Positions 7,839 to 41,298 are shown, counted from the first letter of the stretch. The stretch: DNA of 43,233 nucleotides from a virus (IMGVR_UViG_2516143027_000009), one strand, 5' to 3'. Made by a program: numbers and translations. The notes: generated by a model not told the origin, from the sequence alone.

Positions 7839-7929
7839 ATTTACATCGCACTCCTCTTGTGCCATAGTAATCGGGCACTGGCAAAATCCAGTGCCGGGAT
7901 TGGCGTCCCGGGTTACTAAGTGGCGCATA

Positions 7930-7951
7930 CCACGCCAGACGTGGTTTTTTT
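7930..7951 (+). terminator. Intrinsic terminator inside the 5' leader of the BRO-domain antirepressor gene
   Basis: Hairpin CCACG-CCAGA-CGTGG followed by T7; about 150 nt upstream of the 8108 start codon. Confidence 0.45.
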
Positions 7952-8107
7952 ATGCGTTAAGCACAGCTATATCCGAATTATGGTGGGCTGGGCAGGGGTC
8001 CGAAAGGACGCCGGTACCACTTAGGCCGGTACGCCAACCTTGTCCAGTTCACCACCAGTAATTGGCGTTGCGGTGGTGATTAAAATCACTAAGTGGAGAT
8101 AACCACC

Positions 8108-10868: not shown

Positions 10869-10942
10869 GTCGTTAATTCCTATACGTAGTTTTACGATAC
10901 TGAAGCCCTGACGGTCTGGCCACCGTGGGGCTTCGCTGTTTT
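10869..10942 (+). ncRNA. Candidate sar-like antisense RNA (antisense to the ant RBS and arc 3' end)
   Basis: Plus-strand promoter TTGATA-17 bp-TATACT at 10834..10862 inside the ant 5' end; hairpin 10902..10934 followed by a T-rich tract gives a predicted transcript of about 70 nt. Confidence 0.4.
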
Positions 10943-23062: not shown

Positions 23063-24049
23063 TTACACCACGCGGGCTTCTGTTTCCAGAAGCGCATCAG
23101 TTTCACGGATTGGTACACCACGGAATGAAGTCCACCACTCGCCTTCAGTCTCTTTTACGCTGATAGCCAGAGATGTTTTCTCCAGAGACTGCAGATCAAG
23201 AGCCTGGCCTACAGTGCGGTTCATGTAGAACACCGGGCGGCCCATGCCACGGTTTGGAATGCGATGTAGTGCTTTAACCATCAACTTCGCAATATTTGCG
23301 GCAGAGGAAGGTTCTGAAAGATTGCTGACATCGATATTTGCAATGCGAACAACATAACGCCAGTCACGCAGAGAAAGTCCGTTATCCCATTTGTAATGGG
23401 TACGATAGCCTTCGTACTTGCCGCCATTAGCATCTTCCAGTGTCACCTGGCCTTTATCTTCCATCTGGATGCCAGCCTTCTGCCCTTTCGGGAAGATGCC
23501 ATGCACGGTGTTTTCGCCCCACACCACTAACCAGATTGAGGTGTTATCTGTACCCGTGCCACCAGCATCAATGATGTTCTGAGCATTACCCGCAGACAGG
23601 CTGGAATAGCGGGAGGACAGTCCCATAAACTGCTGAGGGTTAACGCTGGAATCACCATAAAACAGCGTCTGCGCCATCTGCTGATTCATCGCTTCAATAA
23701 ATGCGCGGTCTTCAGACAGGCGGAATTCGGCGGTATTGCCGTTCAGATCAGCCAGTGACTTATCGACTTCAGCATAGGTTTCCAACATACCAATGGAATC
23801 GGTGACCTGCACTGTGGTTGATTTGCTTGGTTGTACACCATAGTTCAACAAACGCCAGGTAGCTGAAGGTAAACCAGAACGAATGGTGGTTTTGTGTCCG
23901 GTAGGAAGGTTCCCTTCGACAAAAGGCATATCCTGAAGGATCGGGTTAGTTTGACCGAGAAGCTCGATAATCTTATCGACTTTCCCATCTTTATCGACGC
24001 GCTTACCCCAGTCAGCCAGCGTTAGCGCAGTTAAGCCTTTAACAGCCAT
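23063..24049 (-). CDS. Major capsid protein
   Basis: 328 aa; position after the scaffold gene; composition and size typical of podovirus major capsid proteins. Confidence 0.75.
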   Translation of the reverse strand: MAVKGLTALTLADWGKRVDKDGKVDKIIELLGQTNPILQDMPFVEGNLPTGHKTTIRSGLPSATWRLLNYGVQPSKSTTVQVTDSIGMLETYAEVDKSLADLNGNTAEFRLSEDRAFIEAMNQQMAQTLFYGDSSVNPQQFMGLSSRYSSLSAGNAQNIIDAGGTGTDNTSIWLVVWGENTVHGIFPKGQKAGIQMEDKGQVTLEDANGGKYEGYRTHYKWDNGLSLRDWRYVVRIANIDVSNLSEPSSAANIAKLMVKALHRIPNRGMGRPVFYMNRTVGQALDLQSLEKTSLAISVKETEGEWWTSFRGVPIRETDALLETEARVV

Positions 24050-24063
24050 TGTTATTTCCTCTC

Positions 24064-24765
24064 TTATTTGCCATAGAGCACTTCGGCCGCACTACGCTGG
24101 CCTTCATTACCACCGGTGACCATGCCATCCTCAGACATCGCCTTTCCGATTTTCACGAACGTTTTGACCAGATCAGGGTGATTACCCAGTCCGGTGGTGT
24201 TCAGATATTCTTTGAGTTCAGGTGTCCCGAACTGGTCAAGCGCACGCTGTGCGGCGCTAAGGTTAGAAATCAACTTGTCGCCACCGATTTCTTTGTCAGC
24301 TTTTACATCCGCAGCCCACTGCTCGGTTGTTTTCTGCCAGGCTTCTGCCTGGCGCTGCTGAACACCTGCCAGAATCTTCGGATAAGCATCAACCAGCTTT
24401 TGCGCTTGCTCGTTGGTCAGGTTAAGTTCTCGCGCCACCGGCTCGAATTCCTTCAACGCTTCTGTATCCAGCTCTACGCCTTCGGCTGCCTGAAACTCGT
24501 ACTTCTCAGGCGCACCCTCTGGTTTATCGCCGTCCTTTTTTTCATCCTGCTTATCGTTTTCAGGCTTTTTGTCATCAGCAGGTTTATCGCCATCAGCAAC
24601 AAGTTGTGGCTTATCACCTTCCTGTTGTGATGGATCACCAACTGGAGCAGGGTTATCACCTGCAGGCGCTGACGGTTCTGACGCAGCCGGAGCTGCTCCA
24701 CCATCGACTGGTTGCTCATTGCAAAGACGGCGATACAGCAAACGCTCAAATAAATTCATGATCAC
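24064..24765 (-). CDS. Scaffolding protein
   Basis: Acidic, Pro/Ala/Asp/Lys-rich disordered N-terminal half and helical C-terminal half; between portal and capsid genes. Confidence 0.6.
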   Translation of the reverse strand: MIMNLFERLLYRRLCNEQPVDGGAAPAASEPSAPAGDNPAPVGDPSQQEGDKPQLVADGDKPADDKKPENDKQDEKKDGDKPEGAPEKYEFQAAEGVELDTEALKEFEPVARELNLTNEQAQKLVDAYPKILAGVQQRQAEAWQKTTEQWAADVKADKEIGGDKLISNLSAAQRALDQFGTPELKEYLNTTGLGNHPDLVKTFVKIGKAMSEDGMVTGGNEGQRSAAEVLYGK

Positions 24766-25058
24766 TCCTGTTCACTGGCCTCTTTGGCCATCTTCAAATA
24801 CTGTTCAGGGCAATGCGCCATAACGCGCTGAAACAGTTCCAGCGCCAGATTGCGTTGCCCCTCATTAAATGCCATTGCCATAGCGTCCATCGGTGAGATA
24901 GCGGAAAACACACGGCCTTTCTCCAGCACCGACCAGACAACGCGACGCCCCTGTTCACTGCTCATGACAAAGCGAATGTCATCAATTTCACGCTGCGCCA
25001 TGTCACGTTGCTTACGGGCGTTTTCTTCTTTCAGTTGATCGTCTTCGTAATCTGTCAT
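24762..25058 (-). CDS. Hypothetical protein between portal and scaffold genes
   Basis: 98 aa, start and stop overlap the neighbouring genes. Confidence 0.45.
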   Translation of the reverse strand: MTDYEDDQLKEENARKQRDMAQREIDDIRFVMSSEQGRRVVWSVLEKGRVFSAISPMDAMAMAFNEGQRNLALELFQRVMAHCPEQYLKMAKEASEQE

Positions 25059-26734
25059 TGTGATTGCCCACCCTGACCACTAACTGCATTCGCCATAGCT
25101 GACAACACACTCGGATCCGAAGTTTTAGCTTCGCTTAGCGTCTTGGCCCCCTGTGCCGCCGCCATCCCCATCGCCATCATTTGTTGCTGCTGTTGCTGCT
25201 GTGCCCGTTGCTGGCGAGCCTGCTCAACCTGTTCCTGCGGAACAATGACGGTTGGAGACACTCCGGACATATCAGCGAATGCATCGATCGCCTGATCAAC
25301 GTTGAGTTTGTCGAGAGCTTCTGGTTTCGCTTGCGCAAGTTGACCAATGAAGTTAACCGTGGACGCCAGACTGGACAGGCCGATAGACTTCTGCGCCTGA
25401 GCCATGACGGAAATGTATTCGACCTTCAGGGGCATACCTTCCATCACGTCTGGCGGTGGCGGCAGCATGTTTTTACGCACCATCATCGAGAAAGAGCGGT
25501 CAATGAGAGGATTAAGACATTCGTCGTTCAGACGCTCCAGAACCGGCCCCAACATCAGAAGTTTTTCTTCTTTCATTTCGATCACCGCTTCAACAGGCAT
25601 CGAGCGGGTATTGATGTTCTGCAACATCATGAACAGATCGACAAAGTAGGCGCTGTTAATGATTTGACGAGTGTCCTGAATGTCTGCCACCAAATCTGCT
25701 GTACTGGGGTTAACCAGATAAGCAGGCCTGAAACCATCCTGACCAGTAATCTGATCGATATACGTGATGTCGCCAGGAAGAAGGGAGGCACGCTGATTCT
25801 TGAGGGAAGTCGGAGCAACCATCGGCGGATTGGTGGCTTTATCAATCAACTGCGACTTGCGCTTCTGGAGAAGCTGCAATGCCTTAACAGGTCCAAGCGC
25901 CAGCATACCCGGGCATGATGATCCATAAACATCTTCGCCGTTAACTTCCCAGCGCGGAGCCATAATTGGAAACTCATCGAATCCGGACTCACGCAACAAC
26001 TTGTCGTTATCGCCACAAACCTCGTAATAAACCGATTTGAATGGCTTGTTCTTGCTATCCAGCTTCGATGTATCGCGGTCAATGTTCGGGTAAACCGAAT
26101 GCATCACTTCAATCCACTTCTCGTAGGTTCCGCTTTCCCACATGCTTTTTACGGATTCGCTGACGTTATTTAGCCCGAACTCCTGAACAAGCTGACGAAC
26201 AGTCATAGAGAACTTGCGAAAACAGGTGTCCACACTGCCACGAGGTGAGTTAGCCAGGTAGTAACTGCCTATCGGGAATGGCATTGTGCGAATGATGTCC
26301 TCGTCATCCTCCAGCACCGCCATTGCACCAGTGCTGTATGTGCCGAGGCTTCCGTATAACTGCGGCAGCGACTGATAGAGATTCGACTTATTGAACATAT
26401 CGTTCATGCGGTTCTGCACCGCCTCAAGCCACAACTTAACAGGGCCATAATCCATCATTTCAGGATCTGGCGTAGCCAGGCGAAACCACGGACGCGCGGG
26501 GCTTGTGATGCCTGACATCATGCCGCTGGCGAGAGTGCGCGCCGCCATAGTCCCGGTCGAATCAATAATGCGTGTATTGCGTCGATCGTTACGGTTGACC
26601 TCAGAAGTCAGAAAGCGGGAACCACGCGGGTTGATGTAATCACTCAACTCGCGCCAGTGCGGCTCGAACGACTGACGCTCGCTTTCAAATTGTGCGAACT
26701 GTTTGTTCAATCGCTCTTTAGTTGTTTCCGCCAT
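25055..26734 (-). CDS. Portal protein
   Basis: 559 aa; position after terL; Gln/Ala-rich C-terminal tail. Confidence 0.75.
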   Translation of the reverse strand: MAETTKERLNKQFAQFESERQSFEPHWRELSDYINPRGSRFLTSEVNRNDRRNTRIIDSTGTMAARTLASGMMSGITSPARPWFRLATPDPEMMDYGPVKLWLEAVQNRMNDMFNKSNLYQSLPQLYGSLGTYSTGAMAVLEDDEDIIRTMPFPIGSYYLANSPRGSVDTCFRKFSMTVRQLVQEFGLNNVSESVKSMWESGTYEKWIEVMHSVYPNIDRDTSKLDSKNKPFKSVYYEVCGDNDKLLRESGFDEFPIMAPRWEVNGEDVYGSSCPGMLALGPVKALQLLQKRKSQLIDKATNPPMVAPTSLKNQRASLLPGDITYIDQITGQDGFRPAYLVNPSTADLVADIQDTRQIINSAYFVDLFMMLQNINTRSMPVEAVIEMKEEKLLMLGPVLERLNDECLNPLIDRSFSMMVRKNMLPPPPDVMEGMPLKVEYISVMAQAQKSIGLSSLASTVNFIGQLAQAKPEALDKLNVDQAIDAFADMSGVSPTVIVPQEQVEQARQQRAQQQQQQQMMAMGMAAAQGAKTLSEAKTSDPSVLSAMANAVSGQGGQSQ

Positions 26735-26748
26735 TTCAATGACTCCGG

Positions 26749-26955
26749 TTACTGACCAAGCAGCGTTTTACCGCTGGTATTAGCGGTTGATGTGTCGCCC
26801 TGAGAACCGGTAAGCAGCGTAGAACTACGACCAGCAGCAGCGCGACGGCGACGAGTTTCTTCGTCGCGGGCATCAACAACGGCGGCATCCTGCTCCTGTG
26901 GTGCTGCCTGAACTTCTGGTGTTGCAGGCACTGATGGTGAGCTACCCATGCACAT
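26749..26955 (-). CDS. Small hypothetical protein upstream of portal
   Basis: 68 aa with a plausible GGAG RBS; low-complexity, weak support. Confidence 0.3.
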   Translation of the reverse strand: MCMGSSPSVPATPEVQAAPQEQDAAVVDARDEETRRRRAAAGRSSTLLTGSQGDTSTANTSGKTLLGQ

Positions 26956-27045
26956 ATCAATGACTCCGTACGCAATTAAATCATTACCAATTTAACCACA
27001 TATGATTTATTTATCGTAGATGATTGACATTTAACGCACGAATTA

Positions 27046-27060
27046 TTACCTTTCAGGTAA
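27046..27060. promoter_or_regulatory. Operator-like palindrome TTACC-TTTCA-GGTAA (copy 5), next to a TTGACA hexamer
   Basis: Identical to copy 1; TTGACA at 27023..27028; lies between the portal operon start and the structured region and tRNA. Confidence 0.5.
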
Positions 27061-27382
27061 GTAAAGGATTCATTCCGGTTACTAACCTGACTGGCTTGTC
27101 GTTAAATTGAACAGGTGGAGTGAGCTTTTATTTTGAGCAGTACGGCGTATGGCACATGCGCCGATAGCGGTCTGGATACGTTTAAGGGGCACCCTCCCTT
27201 GCTCGGGCAAACGAACCAGGTAGCCGGAATGTGCAAGTCGAGCGGTTTTATTCCGCGCACGGGGATTCACCATCCCGGCGATTCGGTGTGACGCCTCGGA
27301 AGAGACGAGGGTACAACGATGAGAGCATTTATGGAGCCGCGACAAAGTGTGGCGCCTTAACAGGCTAAGTGCTCTCAGCGTT

Positions 27383-27459
27383 GTGGCATTAGCTCAGTTG
27401 GACAGAGCAACCGCCTTCTAAGCGGTTGGTCGCAGGTTCGAATCCTGCATGCCACGCCA
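27383..27459 (+). tRNA. tRNA-Arg (anticodon UCU), phage-encoded
   Basis: Cloverleaf by eye: acceptor GTGGCAT/ATGCCAC, D-arm GCTC-AGTTGGAC-AGAGC, anticodon stem ACCGC/GCGGT with loop CTTCTAA, T-arm GCAGG-TTCGAAT-CCTGC, discriminator G and encoded CCA. Confidence 0.85.
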
Positions 27460-27503
27460 GAATCACGCCTAAGGACCGTGATGCCAGAAGTTCCAGGTGC
27501 TTG

Positions 27504-27546
27504 GCGGTGATGGTTTCCCTTGAAGGACTATCACCGCCCTTTTTAC
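27504..27546 (+). terminator. Rho-independent terminator downstream of the tRNA
   Basis: Long hairpin GGCGGTGAT...ATCACCGCC followed by CTTTTT. Confidence 0.5.
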
Positions 27547-27619
27547 AGCAGGACGCCATTGCGATGACTTCATGCTGTAAACCAGTACAGCCACGGAAGG
27601 CATAACTCATTGCTTCCAG

Positions 27620-27642
27620 TTCGCCCGGTTCGCCGGGCATTT
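27620..27642 (+). terminator. Hairpin plus T-tract immediately upstream of the 27657 gene RBS
   Basis: GCCCGG-TTCG-CCGGGC followed by T6, then the RBS AAGGTGAG. Confidence 0.45.
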
Positions 27643-27656
27643 TTTAAGGTGAGATC

Positions 27657-28079
27657 ATGAAGACAATTGATATGTTGGCTAAGTATCTAAATGAATGGCC
27701 ATTAAAATATTCTCGTATCGTTCAGGCTGAAGACTGCATTTTTTATGGCGTTTTTGCTGGTAATGAAATGCATTACGAAGTAATTCAGAGTGAGGGACTG
27801 GCCGGGTTAACTCTTAGCGAAGACCATGGTACTAGCGTTACGTACCATGACTGGATTTCAGCGCAGAAAACTGAAATGGAAAAAGGCAATGTGTTTGATA
27901 TTTCTCGCGCTGTATACGCCAAAGAAAAAAGTGATGATGATTACATGCGCGAAAACTTATACAACATGAAGTTACAATGCCTGGCTGAAGTGCTTAGTAA
28001 AAGATCTTTACTTGATGTGGTTGGTGCTGAGCAGGACGCCAAGGCAATCAACGCCGCATTCGATAAAATAACCTTCTAA
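27657..28079 (+). CDS. Hypothetical acidic protein encoded opposite to the late operon (accessory gene)
   Basis: RBS AAGGTGAG; 140 aa; low GC; own terminator; plus strand while the flanking portal and terL are on the minus strand. Confidence 0.6.
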   Translation: MKTIDMLAKYLNEWPLKYSRIVQAEDCIFYGVFAGNEMHYEVIQSEGLAGLTLSEDHGTSVTYHDWISAQKTEMEKGNVFDISRAVYAKEKSDDDYMRENLYNMKLQCLAEVLSKRSLLDVVGAEQDAKAINAAFDKITF

Positions 28080-28100
28080 CGCCGTGACATGTCACAATCA

Positions 28101-28125
28101 GCCCGCCGATTCGCGGGCTTTTTTA
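28101..28125 (+). terminator. Rho-independent terminator of the 27657 gene
   Basis: Hairpin GCCCGC-CGATTC-GCGGGC followed by T7; overlaps the terL stop. Confidence 0.6.
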
Positions 28126-29598
28126 TGCAAAAGGATCATAGTCTGTGATGGCTTTGCCTTGCTGGTTCTGCTGCCCGGGAATTCGCAGACGCTTCGACAC
28201 AGGGAACGCAAACGTCAGCAGTAGCGCATCGCCTTTACCAGGAGAACGCCCAAGTCGCTCTTTGATATCTTCCTTCGGTTCGATAACGATTTTACCGTCC
28301 ACGCGAACTTTGTACTCTGCCGTCGACAGGTCGTCCGCTGTTTCCTGGTCATCCAGCATGCCGCCGAGCCTCAGCCATGTCTTGCATGAGTTGAACATCT
28401 CCCCACGCTTGTTGAGCATCTGCGGGTCAGTAGACGCGCCACCGAACGGAACAAGTTGCCATGTACGACCCCAGCCGTCACCGATTGACTTCAAACCGGT
28501 TCCGTAACCGAAGTCGATGAACACCGCGTCAGCCTGATACTGGTCTTCAAAGTCAGCGATACGCTTCGCCATAATCAGATCGTCGGTAGTCTTGTTGCCA
28601 GTCCACAGCACCTTACTGTGTAGCCCCTGCCGCAGGTATATCACCGCGTCATCAACGCCGGAGTATGCCGGGTCAACGCCGATTATCACCGGAGCATGTG
28701 CCACCTGCGCAGCGGTTACCACCCGTTTCATTGCCTCGTCAGTAAGACCGGTAGGGATAAACTGCAATTCAGATGCATCAGGGAATATGCCGCGCACACG
28801 GATTTTAACGAAGTCGCTGTCTTCCCCGTAGTCATCAACCCATTTCTGCAACTGCTGTTTGTTAGTGCCTTCCACCGTTCGGCTGTCAATCTGCGCAGTT
28901 TTCCAGCGGTGTTTATATTTGCGGAAACATTCGCGGAAACGTCCGGTATTACGCGTCGGGTTTCCGAACGCCACCCAGATAATCTCAGTGTCTTCGTCCG
29001 TTAGTGCACCCTCGGCAACTTCCCACACCAGATCCGCAATGTTCGACGCTTCATCGAATACCACGATGATGCGTTTGCGCTCGTTGTGTAGTCCGGCGAA
29101 TGCCTCAGTGTTGTGCTCAGACCAGGGGATTGCGTCAGCTCGCCACCGCTTGTCGTGTCCAGGATCATTGCTGTACATCGCGGTAGCGGTACAGGTAAAC
29201 CAGTCTTTCGTGATAGCAAGGTTCGACCACTTGATAATTTCCGGCCAGGTCTTCGTTCGTAGCTGGTTGTCGGTGTTGGCGGTCACCACAACCTTACAAT
29301 CCTCGCAAGTGGACATGCCCCAGTTGATCAGCATTGAGATGAATGCGGATTTACCAATACCGTGACCAGAAGCGCGTGCCAGCATAAGCGGCTGATAACG
29401 CGTCTCTGGATTCTGCAGGTGATCACGTATCTCTCGGAACGCATCGGCCTGCCACTGACGTGGACCGGTAGCATGTGCCAGTTCAGTCCCCTCTTCCCCC
29501 CAAGGGAACGCATAGAGGGCATAGCCAAGCGGATCGTGAGTGAACCCTGCAATATCTTCGATTAACTGCTCTTCAGGAGATAACGCTGCATCTGTCAC
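28123..29598 (-). CDS. terL: Terminase large subunit
   Basis: 491 aa; Walker A-like ARASGHGIGKS ATPase motif near the N-terminus; position after terS. Confidence 0.8.
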   Translation of the reverse strand: MTDAALSPEEQLIEDIAGFTHDPLGYALYAFPWGEEGTELAHATGPRQWQADAFREIRDHLQNPETRYQPLMLARASGHGIGKSAFISMLINWGMSTCEDCKVVVTANTDNQLRTKTWPEIIKWSNLAITKDWFTCTATAMYSNDPGHDKRWRADAIPWSEHNTEAFAGLHNERKRIIVVFDEASNIADLVWEVAEGALTDEDTEIIWVAFGNPTRNTGRFRECFRKYKHRWKTAQIDSRTVEGTNKQQLQKWVDDYGEDSDFVKIRVRGIFPDASELQFIPTGLTDEAMKRVVTAAQVAHAPVIIGVDPAYSGVDDAVIYLRQGLHSKVLWTGNKTTDDLIMAKRIADFEDQYQADAVFIDFGYGTGLKSIGDGWGRTWQLVPFGGASTDPQMLNKRGEMFNSCKTWLRLGGMLDDQETADDLSTAEYKVRVDGKIVIEPKEDIKERLGRSPGKGDALLLTFAFPVSKRLRIPGQQNQQGKAITDYDPFA

Positions 29599-30191
29599 TG
29601 ATTGCCATCCTGACGTTCTTTCAGTCTCTTCCTGGCTGCCGCTATGCGATCAGCAATTGTCACATTCACATTAACATCCAGGCGTTCTTTGAATGCATTG
29701 ACATCGACGTGCTTACCAATCAGTTCGAGGTTCTTCACCTTGTCAGGCCATTTAATTTTTTTGAGGATTGTCTCTATCGAATCCTCGTCCATGTTCATGA
29801 TGGTCGATGACAGATCAAAGCCGCTAAGCGTAGTGCGCCAGATTTTCGGCCACTCGCGGATTGGCTTAAGGCTCCCATCGTCGTTGAGGATATCAATCAC
29901 GTCCATCTGGTCGATCTCCACCAGGCGCATGAGAACGTAATCAGCACTGACGCGCATTCGTTTGTTGCGCTCCTCCATCAACTCGGCAATCCGTTTCTGA
30001 ATGCGTTCATCGCGCATCATGACACTGGCTTTAACTGCCGCTGTATTTGGGGAGAATCCTGCATTAATCGCAGCCTGAGTCTGATTTTCAGGCGTTTTGA
30101 TGTATGACTGGCAATAAGCCTCCTGCATTGCTGTTAGTGGCTTAAATTGCGTTGATTTGCGTTTATAGGTTTTAGGTTCAGCAGGCATCAT
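29595..30191 (-). CDS. terS: Terminase small subunit
   Basis: Region AMQEAYCQSYIKTPENQTQAAINAGFSPNTAAVKAS resembles the small terminase DNA-binding domain; start moved to internal Met pair with GGTGG RBS (the ORF extends to 30269). Confidence 0.65.
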   Translation of the reverse strand: MMPAEPKTYKRKSTQFKPLTAMQEAYCQSYIKTPENQTQAAINAGFSPNTAAVKASVMMRDERIQKRIAELMEERNKRMRVSADYVLMRLVEIDQMDVIDILNDDGSLKPIREWPKIWRTTLSGFDLSSTIMNMDEDSIETILKKIKWPDKVKNLELIGKHVDVNAFKERLDVNVNVTIADRIAAARKRLKERQDGNQ

Positions 30192-30196
30192 AACCA

Positions 30197-30230
30197 CCAT
30201 GGTAATAGTTACCGTTGTGGTAATAGTACC
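30197..30230. repeat. Tandem GGTAATAGT(T)ACC repeats directly upstream of terS
   Basis: CCATGGTAATAGTTACC-GTTGT-GGTAATAGTACCATG; half-sites related to the operator but in the opposite arrangement. Confidence 0.5.
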
Positions 30231-30233
30231 ATG

Positions 30234-30260
30234 CAAAATAAAGCCGCCATAGTTGGCGGC
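30234..30260 (-). terminator. Intrinsic terminator between the 30266..30478 gene and terS
   Basis: Minus-strand hairpin GCCGCC-AACTAT-GGCGGC followed by TTTATTTTG. Confidence 0.45.
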
Positions 30261-30265
30261 AGTAT

Positions 30266-30478
30266 TCAAAGTCCATCAAATTCATCGTAAAAACTCTCGT
30301 CAAGATACCCTTCCCATTTACCGCGAATGAAAATTACATCCTCGCCGCAAGGGTGCTGACTGTCGATAACTATATCCCTCCTGGCGCAACCATACTTATG
30401 CATGAGAAATTTAACCTCTTTCGGAAAATTTGCTGAGTTATCTCTCATATCTTCAAGGTCGTAGCGTATTTTTGGCAT
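30266..30478 (-). CDS. Hypothetical small protein
   Basis: 70 aa from Met MPKIRYD with RBS GAAGGTG; the ORF track's upstream extension starts at a GTG inside the palindrome. Confidence 0.5.
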   Translation of the reverse strand: MPKIRYDLEDMRDNSANFPKEVKFLMHKYGCARRDIVIDSQHPCGEDVIFIRGKWEGYLDESFYDEFDGL

Positions 30479-30495
30479 AACACCTTCGTGACATG

Positions 30496-30837
30496 TCACA
30501 CTATTAATTTCGTTTCATGCCAGCCTTTAGTCACCCAGCATTGCGAGTCACCATTACACGGGCATGAATTAACGGGAACTCTCTCGCCGCACTTACCGCA
30601 AAGTTTTCTGCTGATCGATTTTATACGCCCGCGCACACGTGCATCATCCTGGCGGATCAGCAGCGCGATGTACTCGGCCATTTCATAGGGATCGTGACCA
30701 GGGCGCCGGGCGGCGCAGTTCCGCGCCAGCATTTCCTGCTCCTGCTTATCCAGCACCAGTTCAATTTTGCGCTCACCGGCGGCGGACTGCCGAGCGCGCT
30801 GCGCGGCTTTGCGCTCTGCTGCTGATTTAGCCATCAA
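30496..30837 (-). CDS. Small basic protein with C-terminal zinc-finger-like cysteine cluster (possible regulator)
   Basis: 113 aa; Arg/Ala-rich N-terminus; CGKCG...CPCNGDSQC cluster; located just upstream of the packaging genes. Confidence 0.5.
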   Translation of the reverse strand: MMAKSAAERKAAQRARQSAAGERKIELVLDKQEQEMLARNCAARRPGHDPYEMAEYIALLIRQDDARVRGRIKSISRKLCGKCGERVPVNSCPCNGDSQCWVTKGWHETKLIV

Positions 30838-31108
30838 TATTCACCTTTATAGCGAACACCTTTACCGGTTTATCGCCGAAGTGCGGATGTGTGATTGTCT
30901 TGATTTCATATCCGTCATACGGGACGTCAATTCTGCGGCTGGAATCGTCGCGCTTCGGATATCCCTTTGTGATAATCAGGCGGTCATACTCGCGGAACAT
31001 AATTCGCTTATTCCAGTAGTCATTGCACAGGCGATACTCTTCCGTTTTCTCTCCGCGAATCATGGCATCGAAGTATTCACCTTTAACGGCAAGTTGCAGG
31101 TTAGCCAT
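30827..31108 (-). CDS. Hypothetical protein, possibly ASCH/PUA-like fold
   Basis: Strong RBS GGAGGTGAGG before Met MANLQLAV; 93 aa; weak resemblance to ASCH-domain proteins. Confidence 0.45.
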   Translation of the reverse strand: MANLQLAVKGEYFDAMIRGEKTEEYRLCNDYWNKRIMFREYDRLIITKGYPKRDDSSRRIDVPYDGYEIKTITHPHFGDKPVKVFAIKVNIDG

Positions 31109-41135: not shown

Positions 41136-41298
41136 GCCTGCAATCTGGCATAGTCACATCCGTACAAAGGTCGGGTGGAGAGGCGTAATACAACACCCGA
41201 AAGGGGAATATGCCCGGAGCTACTGTTTGTGCTCTAGTTGACACCCGATCACCAGCTACTAACTGGTTTTCGTAACTAAAAACAAACAGGAGGTCATC

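Follow-up and report, generated by a model that had tools for sequence, protein, structure and literature searches.

A conserved, modular structured RNA predicted upstream of tRNA-Arg(TCT) in an epsilon15-type phage, with relatives in P1-like and lambdoid phages

Introduction

What is specified by the roughly 300 GC-rich nucleotides that precede a tRNA gene in a phage of the epsilon15 type, in a stretch that offers no convincing protein? The original prediction had described positions 27082-27380 of the window (the whole stretch of viral DNA that was analysed, 43,233 nt) as a non-coding region with many short hairpins, possibly a co-transcribed structured RNA such as a tRNA leader, a degraded tRNA-like element or a regulatory RNA. 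Comparison with its homologues identifies the interval as the central part of a structured RNA, conserved and modular, that is composed of a pseudoknotted 5' domain of 172 nt and a closing stem, P6.

Genomic setting and coding potential

The window represents the genome of an epsilon15/phiV10-type phage (Uetakevirus), and its positions 26900-27700 are 98-99% identical to phiV10, TL-2011b and their relatives according to BLAST. The interval is part of a short plus-strand insert in the structural operon on the minus strand, located between the gp3-like/portal genes (25055-26955, minus strand), which form its upstream flank, and the large terminase gene (28123-29598). Apart from the interval the insert comprises tRNA-Arg(TCT) with an encoded CCA (27383-27459, plus strand; ARAGORN, Rfam 73.3 bits), two terminators and an ORF of 140 aa (27657-28079, plus strand, taken from the ORF listing), for which a Pfam search returned no match. 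The RNA of 27082-27380 is almost certainly co-transcribed with tRNA-Arg(TCT).

The G+C content of the interval is indeed elevated (54.8% versus 48.1% in the window), which places it among the top 8% of the 300-nt windows. ORFs of 87, 52, 52 and 45 aa can be called mechanically (87 aa on the minus strand; 52 and 45 aa on the plus strand), none of which is conserved. Among 147 distinct homologues the variability showed no codon periodicity (mean entropy of 0.65, 0.76 and 0.64 at codon positions 1-3) and no open frame is shared, the stop-free frames being spread over five phases; the domain lengths of the homologues furthermore occupy all three residue classes modulo 3. Lacking both a conserved reading frame and third-position variability, a protein-coding gene was rejected, so that the proposed absence of a credible ORF was borne out. 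The hairpins are real as well, since the fold of 27135-27385 is more stable than expected by chance (z-score of -2.5) and the fold of P6 alone reaches -33.9 kcal/mol with a z-score of -6.2.

Conservation sets in abruptly at 27142, and the conserved unit extends over 27142-27383. The first 60 nt of the predicted interval (27082-27141) belong to a poorly conserved leader (27059-27141, plus strand), as revealed by comparison with the loci L135 and L157 and with Klebsiella and Enterobacter phages. There an intact "stem module" closed by GGAGTGCGCTTCCAGTTGTG is found, of which the leader of the window holds a degenerate remnant of the 3' half (GGTGGAGTGAGCTTTT, 27114-27129, plus strand).

Fold, covariation and functional strand

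The 5' domain (27142-27313, plus strand) forms the core of the family and contains five helices, one of them a pseudoknot, as derived from alignment A3, pair counts, mutual information and a table of the pseudoknot pairs. All of its elements were assigned to the plus strand. P1 (27143-27151/27155-27163) is followed by P2a (27168-27170/27224-27226) and P2 (27171-27175/27216-27220), the latter carrying a variable distal insert, by the variable hairpin P3 (about 27240-27260), by P4 (27262-27265/27273-27276), whose loop pairs with a downstream strand to form the pseudoknot (27268-27271/27285-27288), and by P5 (27294-27298/27306-27310). In the alignments, invariant sequence blocks alternate with hairpins of variable length. 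The near-invariant block GGTAGCCGGAATGTGCAAG (27219-27237, plus strand), which includes the 3' strand of P2/P2a and a joining strand, is identical in all eight homologues that keep this part of the domain and that stem from several phage families; a divergent subfamily found with a second search pattern carries GAACAACCGGAATGTGCAAG in its place.

The helices were derived by eye and from mutual information and were then tested on A3, which MAFFT had built without structural information from 44 sequences sharing less than 92% identity pairwise. Canonical pairs account for 94.8% of the pair cells, compared with 86.4 +/- 0.5% in shuffled alignments (the observed value was reached by none of 500 shuffles) and 29-48% with slid partners, and double-sided changes occur in 15 of the 30 pairs (104 cells). 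Of 136 distinct sequences, 113 have C-G and 22 have A-U at the pseudoknot pair 27268:27288; mixed combinations were not found, and the A-U form is present on more than one sequence background. The comparative alignment that the original prediction had proposed as a check therefore reveals strong covariation and a structure conserved across the homologues. A covariance model built from A3, R1, detects one copy in the window (141.9 bits).

G-U wobbles are abundant on one strand only (in A3, pair 7:17 is UG in 42 sequences and pair 30:83 is UG in 37), and every adjacent tRNA lies on the same strand as the RNA. Due to both observations the plus strand is regarded as the functional one. A pairing of GCACAU with AUGUGC (27152-27157 with 27229-27234) suggested by RNAalifold was rejected as a helix since it competes with P1, which covaries; both of its strands are invariant and hence provide no covariation evidence, and a tertiary contact is possible.

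The compensatory changes and the near-invariant blocks recur across P1-like, lambdoid and epsilon15-like phages, which argues for purifying selection on the fold. We consider it highly probable that the element represents a selected, structured RNA family encoded on the plus strand, which is missing from Rfam and from every annotation examined.

Search for known RNA families

The covariance-model scan proposed by the original prediction was run with Rfam 15 (4227 models) on 27082-27380 and returned no match, neither at the gathering thresholds nor at E <= 10. Rfam 15 likewise gave no match in 16 related loci or in the mEp460 copy with a tRNA-like module. The only tRNA or tmRNA called by ARAGORN and the Rfam tRNA model is the one at 27383-27459. 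A cloverleaf was rejected for 27142-27313, the covariation-supported fold being a different one. The suggestion of a degraded tRNA-like element is consequently not supported for the interval, given the missing tRNA matches within 27082-27380 and the pseudoknotted fold of its own. The further suggestion of a regulatory RNA may hold.

Membership in GOLLD or ROOL was rejected since neither Rfam model matched. Ribozyme and riboswitch models yielded nothing at E <= 10 except for a chance match to the hairpin ribozyme of 14.5 bits, which lies outside the element in locus L001. A boxA motif (YGCTCTTTA-type) was detected near the element in one of 201 distinct loci and not in the window, and this sole boxA-like string overlaps an apparent terminator on the opposite strand, as judged by eye. 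On the basis of boxA, a lambda-type nut site or an rrn leader was therefore rejected. Homology to HK022 put was also rejected, because size and topology differ and because R1 found no match at E <= 1 in positions 24000-31000 of HK022, a 7-kb stretch that is expected to hold the immunity region and in which the put sites are not annotated. A search for antisense targets with 11- to 14-mers of 27100-27650 against the rest of the window remained at chance level (twelve 11-mers versus 11.3 expected). No description of the RNA was found in the literature, including a search by sequence string.

The closing stem, the tRNA slot and accessory modules

P6, the "stem module" of the window (27314-27327/27370-27383, plus strand; CAACGAUGAGAGCA / UGCUCUCAGCGUUG), encloses a variable insert (27328-27369). 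Across the loci 38 distinct versions of the stem were found, with several types of compensatory change, for example GAGAGCA/UGCUCUC, AAGAGCA/UGCUCUU, GAGCGCAC/GUGCGCUC and GAGAGUA/UACUCUC. The last G of P6 is at the same time base +1 of the tRNA, leaving no spacer between the RNA and tRNA-Arg.

The slot 3' of P6 is occupied either by tRNA-Arg(TCT), as in the window, or by a tRNA-like module. The junction, CGTTG followed by TGGCATTAGCTC, is identical in loci with P6 inserts of different length and in the tRNA and tRNA-like versions. Among 130 loci, 45 have a tRNA that adjoins the element on its own strand and about 85 have none next to it. Of the suggested co-transcribed tRNA leader, the structured RNA on the strand of the tRNA is thus retained, strongly supported by covariation, whereas the designation as a leader of a tRNA proved too narrow.

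The tRNA-like module combines an acceptor-like stem of 7 bp (UGUGGUG/CACCACA) with a variable insert and a pair of hairpins whose loops are complementary (GCUGAU/AUCAGC), and is often followed by A-CCA. It takes the place of the tRNA in mEp460 (L001, 3238-3370) and in L085, L135 and L010, and was not called by ARAGORN or Rfam. A pairing of the two loops with each other is suggestive only: among 16 distinct versions, the kissing-loop test provided one compensatory example (GCUAAU/AUUAGC in L085).

Usually a hairpin and then a terminator with a conserved base are found 3' of the slot in the related loci. In the window the hairpin, AUCACG-CCUAAGGAC-CGUGAU, is located at 27462-27482 (plus strand), and its motif follows tRNA-bearing and tRNA-like versions alike (L085, L124, L073 and L135). 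Stem modules and tRNA-like modules are sometimes duplicated or located ahead of the 5' domain, and T-loop hairpins occur within some of the variable inserts. In L177 (about 1137-1240) the slot is taken by a His-like tRNA that ARAGORN did not call and whose extra region is very large, and two UUCGAUY T-loop hairpins lie in the stem module that comes next; in L104 (3580-3786) the P6 insert includes a T-arm, GGTTCGATTCC. Across the family the whole unit measures 400-700 nt, its core about 240 nt and the 5' domain 146-178 nt.

Distribution among phages and bacterial genomes

The 5' domain was found, with or without a tRNA and at 70-84% identity, in lambdoid phages, in P1 and in Klebsiella, Enterobacter and Salmonella phages. 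According to BLAST, 27142-27385 is 82-84% identical to unannotated DNA of the lambdoid phages mEp460, cdtI, 2H10 and Ayreon and of Stx2c and Stx2a phages, and its first ~170 nt are 77-81% identical to DNA of P1, P7, D6, SJ46 and RCS47; weaker matches were obtained in Klebsiella, Enterobacter and Salmonella phages and in one Stenotrophomonas phage. The RNA occurs once per phage. The lambdoid copies are located just 3' of cI, on the strand of cI and with no tRNA nearby.

The copy of P1 is an unannotated 5' domain between trnI and the start codon of ban (L004 3001-3169; NC_005856 71023-71191), and none of the 535 features of the P1 record lies over 71023-71191. Since this copy has neither P6 nor a tRNA slot, it appears as the 5' UTR of ban. 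In the P1-like phages tRNA-Ile2 ends about 18 nt upstream of the domain.

In epsilon15 itself (L005 2550-2619; NC_004775) the P1 helix and a portion of P2 are all that is left of the domain, joined to the 3' half of the terminator. This copy is a deletion remnant, and the phage keeps the 140-aa-type ORF though most of the domain is lost. Its record annotates an "RNaseIII mRNA processing" site nearby on the opposite strand. Another truncated form was observed in L159 (8821-8900) and L175, where a consensus promoter (TTGACA-17-TAATAT) with an embedded palindrome (TTAGG-N5-CCTAA) drives a copy that has lost the 5' half of the 5' domain and keeps P3, P4 with its pseudoknot, P5 and P6.

A scan for the exact 19-mer GGTAGCCGGAATGTGCAAG detected at least 120 viral contigs with 109 distinct versions. 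Bacterial genomes, sampled with one genome per species, yielded 24 loci, 22 of them in Enterobacteriaceae or Erwinia (about 18 species). The other two are on MAG contigs labelled Bacillota, one of which carries the full domain; on the other, L139, GGTAGCCGGAATGTGCAAG is present without the surrounding domain and without an R1 match. The RNA is carried by 1840 of 5426 complete E. coli genomes, on chromosomes and P1-like plasmids, and by 1472 of them at a coverage of at least 80%. Among the E. coli matches listed, no annotated feature lies beneath the RNA except for the abutting tRNA-Arg.

In public phage records hypothetical proteins are annotated over the RNA (L001 2943-3311, mEp460_037; L209 3561-3680, Ayreon SJJBTUD_0037), on differing strands. 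Considering the covariation and G-U evidence for an RNA and the lack of a conserved frame, these are probably mis-annotations.

Promoter, operator and terminator context

Upstream of the RNA a putative early promoter can be read from the window (27024-27060, plus strand), consisting of TTGACA (27024-27029), a 17-nt spacer and TACCTT (27047-27052), and overlapped by the palindrome TTACC-N5-GGTAA (27046-27060). It is weak by consensus and remained below the threshold of the promoter scan. TTGACA-17-TACCTT with its palindrome recurs in L135, and the palindrome was also found upstream of the RNA in L147, L150, L164 and L195. We take the palindrome to correspond to the "repressor" binding site of the epsilon15 record, which was mapped by its distance from the gp3 start and not by sequence.

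The RNA unit of the window ends at an intrinsic terminator (27503-27544, plus strand; terminator scan and fold) with the base GGCGGU...ACCGCC and a terminal U5, which has homologues in mEp460 and other loci. Its base, (C/T)TTGGCGGT...ACCGCC (27503-27510 in the window), is kept across phage families and its distal stem varies; the GGCGGT(A) of the base is presumably similar to the first bases of the RfaH ops element, GGCGGTAGNNTG. Between the RNA unit and the ribosome binding site of the 140-aa ORF (27546-27656) the window contains a conserved segment, CAGGACGCCATTGCGATGAC...CATTGCTTCCAGTT, and a second intrinsic terminator (27623-27645, plus strand; terminator scan), which directly precedes this binding site. 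The combination of segment and second terminator was also observed in L085 and L135.

Upstream of the RNA and on its strand, 84 of 200 distinct loci have a repressor-type gene, which ends at a median distance of 156 nt, and the mEp460 representative of this repressor cluster has HTH and peptidase S24 domains (Pfam). About 54 of the 200 loci show the epsilon15-like and about 15 the P1-like arrangement. In mEp460 the gap after cI contains a terminator and two palindromes, TTGC-N7-GCAA, that are similar to the ones at oR; TTGCAT-17-TATCTT is located in this gap as well, about 40 nt upstream of the RNA. At the corresponding place the authors of the Ayreon record annotated a terminator and then a promoter, and L157 and L167 follow the plan of mEp460 with a different operator sequence. 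One terminator follows the RNA in mEp460 before the next ORF, and no promoter-like site was found between this terminator and the early genes. An N-like gene was not detected between promoter and terminator, and the first downstream ORFs gave no N-related Pfam match. A count of 57 of 153 loci with a terminator before the next ORF, obtained with our own terminator counter, was discarded since this counter misses terminators with long loops.

Other contexts differ. The domain of P1 is located about 2.6 kb downstream of Pban and directly before ban, with no terminator after it, and in L157-type loci it lies in a 5' UTR with no terminator before the gene. The epsilon15-like unit runs only into the 140-aa ORF and then converges on the terminase gene. 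As read from these arrangements, the RNA is probably the first product of an early promoter in most contexts, with P1 as the exception, and this promoter is probably controlled by a repressor. In the window the RNA would accordingly be transcribed together with the abutting tRNA from a probably repressor-controlled early promoter about 85 nt upstream.

Possible functions of the RNA

Since the RNA is the first to be made from the early promoter and is the sole conserved element between promoter and terminators, we tentatively propose, with a probability of roughly one in three and on the basis of its position, that it is a cis-acting early-leader RNA comparable to HK022 put in role, not in sequence. 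The 5' domain would be an RNA-only leader that affects the early transcription unit co-transcriptionally and in cis. Its near-invariant unpaired blocks would be bound by a conserved factor of enterobacteria, with the elongating RNA polymerase or the termination machinery as the most plausible candidates, and transcription would thereby be carried through downstream terminators or an untranslated stretch. With the tRNA or tRNA-like module located exactly where P6 ends, RNase P would be able to part the leader from the downstream RNA. However, the distance from Pban and the missing terminator in P1, the 5' UTR position without a terminator in L157-type loci and the epsilon15-like unit, which reaches nothing beyond the 140-aa ORF, do not fit such a leader, nor does epsilon15, which has lost most of the domain and keeps the ORF. 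Antitermination, moreover, neither needs nor explains the repeated stem and tRNA-like modules, the weak promoter of the window failed the scan, and P6 pairs the nucleotides just 5' of the tRNA, which may hinder RNase P. A unit running from promoter to terminator is furthermore equally typical of a stand-alone ncRNA gene. Such a gene is the main rival explanation and almost as probable: an early transcript could be processed by RNase P at the tRNA or tRNA-like slot and by RNase E upstream to a stable RNA of ~240 nt. Working in trans and comparable to other tRNA-linked phage RNAs, this RNA would bind or sequester a host factor that is conserved, for instance an enzyme that handles tRNAs, a defence protein or the translation apparatus. 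Both of the commonest contexts show the RNA as a separate unit that has a promoter of its own and ends in a strong terminator, the junction is identical for both occupants of the slot, as expected of a processing signal, and the epsilon15-like unit leads only to a small ORF. In P1-like phages the RNA follows trnI, where tRNA arrays end, and in epsilon15-like phages it is tied to a tRNA as well; this association, the T-loop hairpins in the variable inserts and the long near-invariant unpaired blocks across unrelated phages of one host family also point to an action in trans. Against it, the complementarity search in the window remained at chance level, and the domain is simply the 5' UTR of an mRNA in L157-type and P1 loci, with neither slot nor terminator. 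The P1 and L157-type contexts, the dead-end unit of the epsilon15-like phages and the accessory modules thus keep both the cis-acting leader and the trans-acting RNA from being secure.

Three further explanations are less likely than these two. It appears improbable that early transcripts begin with a ligand-sensing riboswitch aptamer or with a ribozyme that processes itself, which would couple the early genes to a cellular signal or cut the transcript at the sharp 5' boundary. The architecture typical of such RNAs is indeed present, with invariant joining strands, a pseudoknot and peripheral hairpins of variable length, conservation begins abruptly at the first base of the P1 helix, the domain is a 5' UTR in L157-type and P1 loci, and the 3' GUUG of P6 could pair with an upstream CAAC or, in versions with the tRNA-like module, with a downstream CACCACAAC. 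However, the downstream genes (ban helicase, RdgC-like, DUF2303, tRNA, small ORF) are unrelated to one another and thus suggest no common metabolite, neither a terminator nor a ribosome binding site overlaps the conserved domain, and no known model matches at E <= 10. A passive tRNA leader or processing scaffold, or decaying old tRNA genes, conserved by travelling with the tRNA, would explain why the RNA abuts the tRNA without a spacer, the tRNA-arm-like fragments in related loci and the degenerate module remnant in the leader upstream of 27142. This explanation is very improbable and largely refuted by the copies without a tRNA, which are the majority, by the covariation and by the pseudoknot pair; near-invariant blocks and compensatory helix changes extend across P1-like, lambdoid and epsilon15-like phages, and no cloverleaf was detected in the domain. 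Hardly any credence is given to a site that acts at the DNA level in packaging, recombination or replication, or to a small protein gene on one of the two strands. The location between terminase and portal genes in epsilon15-like phages and the short hypothetical proteins annotated over the RNA in mEp460 and Ayreon may suggest it, but G-U wobbles are frequent on one strand only, frame conservation and codon periodicity are absent, and the genomic positions are unrelated between the phage types save for the shared orientation with the local transcription unit.

Comparison with known phage RNAs

Next to the cis-acting leader proposed here, the put RNAs of HK022 (putL and putR) are RNA-only processive antiterminators of about 70 nt with two stem-loops, present twice per phage (PMC9378689). 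Similar to put, the new RNA is a cis-encoded structured RNA that in lambdoid phages is located just 3' of a probably CI-controlled early promoter with terminators downstream (PMC9378689), and no N-type gene was detected between the early promoter and the first terminator. The put-like location was found in mEp460, Ayreon, L157 and L167, in the order cI, terminator, operators with promoter, and RNA, as well as in the window and L135, where a promoter with a putative operator palindrome lies about 85 nt upstream (window terminators at 27503 and 27623); it was not found in P1. Unlike put, the 5' domain has 146-178 nt and five helices including the pseudoknot, has a single copy per phage and extends to P1-like and epsilon15-like phages.

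GOLLD and ROOL, the subject of Weinberg et al. in 2009 and 2017, are said to adjoin tRNA genes often, with GOLLD sometimes enclosing one. The new RNA is likewise borne by phages and prophages, highly structured and composed of conserved cores with variable inserts, and its association with tRNAs in 45 of the 130 loci is an analogy and not homology. It differs in its smaller size, in its occurrence in phages of Enterobacteriaceae, in its promoter-proximal position in early operons and in its shuffled modules. In the C4 RNA of P1/P7, the CI RNA of P4 and the MALAT1-mascRNA system a tRNA or tRNA-like structure abuts the RNA and RNase P defines its end. The present RNA is similar in that a tRNA or tRNA-like structure stands directly at its predicted end, the last G of P6, but its upstream nucleotides are base-paired in P6 and it has no sequence relation to C4. 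Stable non-tRNA phage RNAs that are co-transcribed with tRNA genes are also known from T4 (rnaC and rnaD), which differ in belonging to an unrelated phage group and in base composition.

A survey of IMG/VR reported 8495 candidate structured motifs, among them DNAVirus_2961, which only sometimes overlaps a tRNA-Arg prediction (PMC10690425). A motif of this type could be part of the RNA family; the paper contains no description of the architecture, distribution or context of the family (PMC10690425). Taken together, the RNA is a new structured RNA family of phages, related in kind to early-leader RNAs and to the ornate phage RNAs linked to tRNAs.

Other RNAs predicted in the window

At the level of the Rfam gathering thresholds the window encodes isrK (7875-7951, 67.7 bits) and the C4 antisense RNA (7976-8059, 66 bits) side by side, a pair that is also present in the mEp460 and L029 loci near the new RNA. 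Their predicted presence suggests an antisense control of an antirepressor of the P1/P7 type in the phage of the window. A sar RNA (10870-10937, 44.8 bits, just above threshold) and sRNA-Xcc1 (41169-41258, 64.8 bits) were further Rfam matches.

Significance

The RNA is present in the textbook phage P1, in Shiga-toxin phages and in the 1840 complete E. coli genomes mentioned above, with no Rfam family and no annotation in the records examined. Pipelines for genome annotation should carry a model of it, as spurious hypothetical proteins overlie the RNA in several records. With E. coli as host and phages in culture collections it is experimentally tractable. The slot for a tRNA or a tRNA-like module links it to the question why large phage RNAs cluster with tRNA genes.

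With considerable doubt, the 5' domain may represent a new class of functional RNA that requires no dedicated protein of the phage. Besides put and EAR it could form a third type of processive antiterminator made of RNA only; otherwise it could be an RNA that binds the polymerase, binds a host factor or is catalytic. If so, such a class would be carried by P1, Stx-converting, other lambdoid and epsilon15-like phages and hence be present, without annotation, in roughly a third of the sequenced E. coli genomes. Located at the head of early transcripts that are probably repressor-controlled, the position of lambda nut and HK022 put, the RNA could explain how lambdoid phages without a recognisable N gene read through their first terminators.
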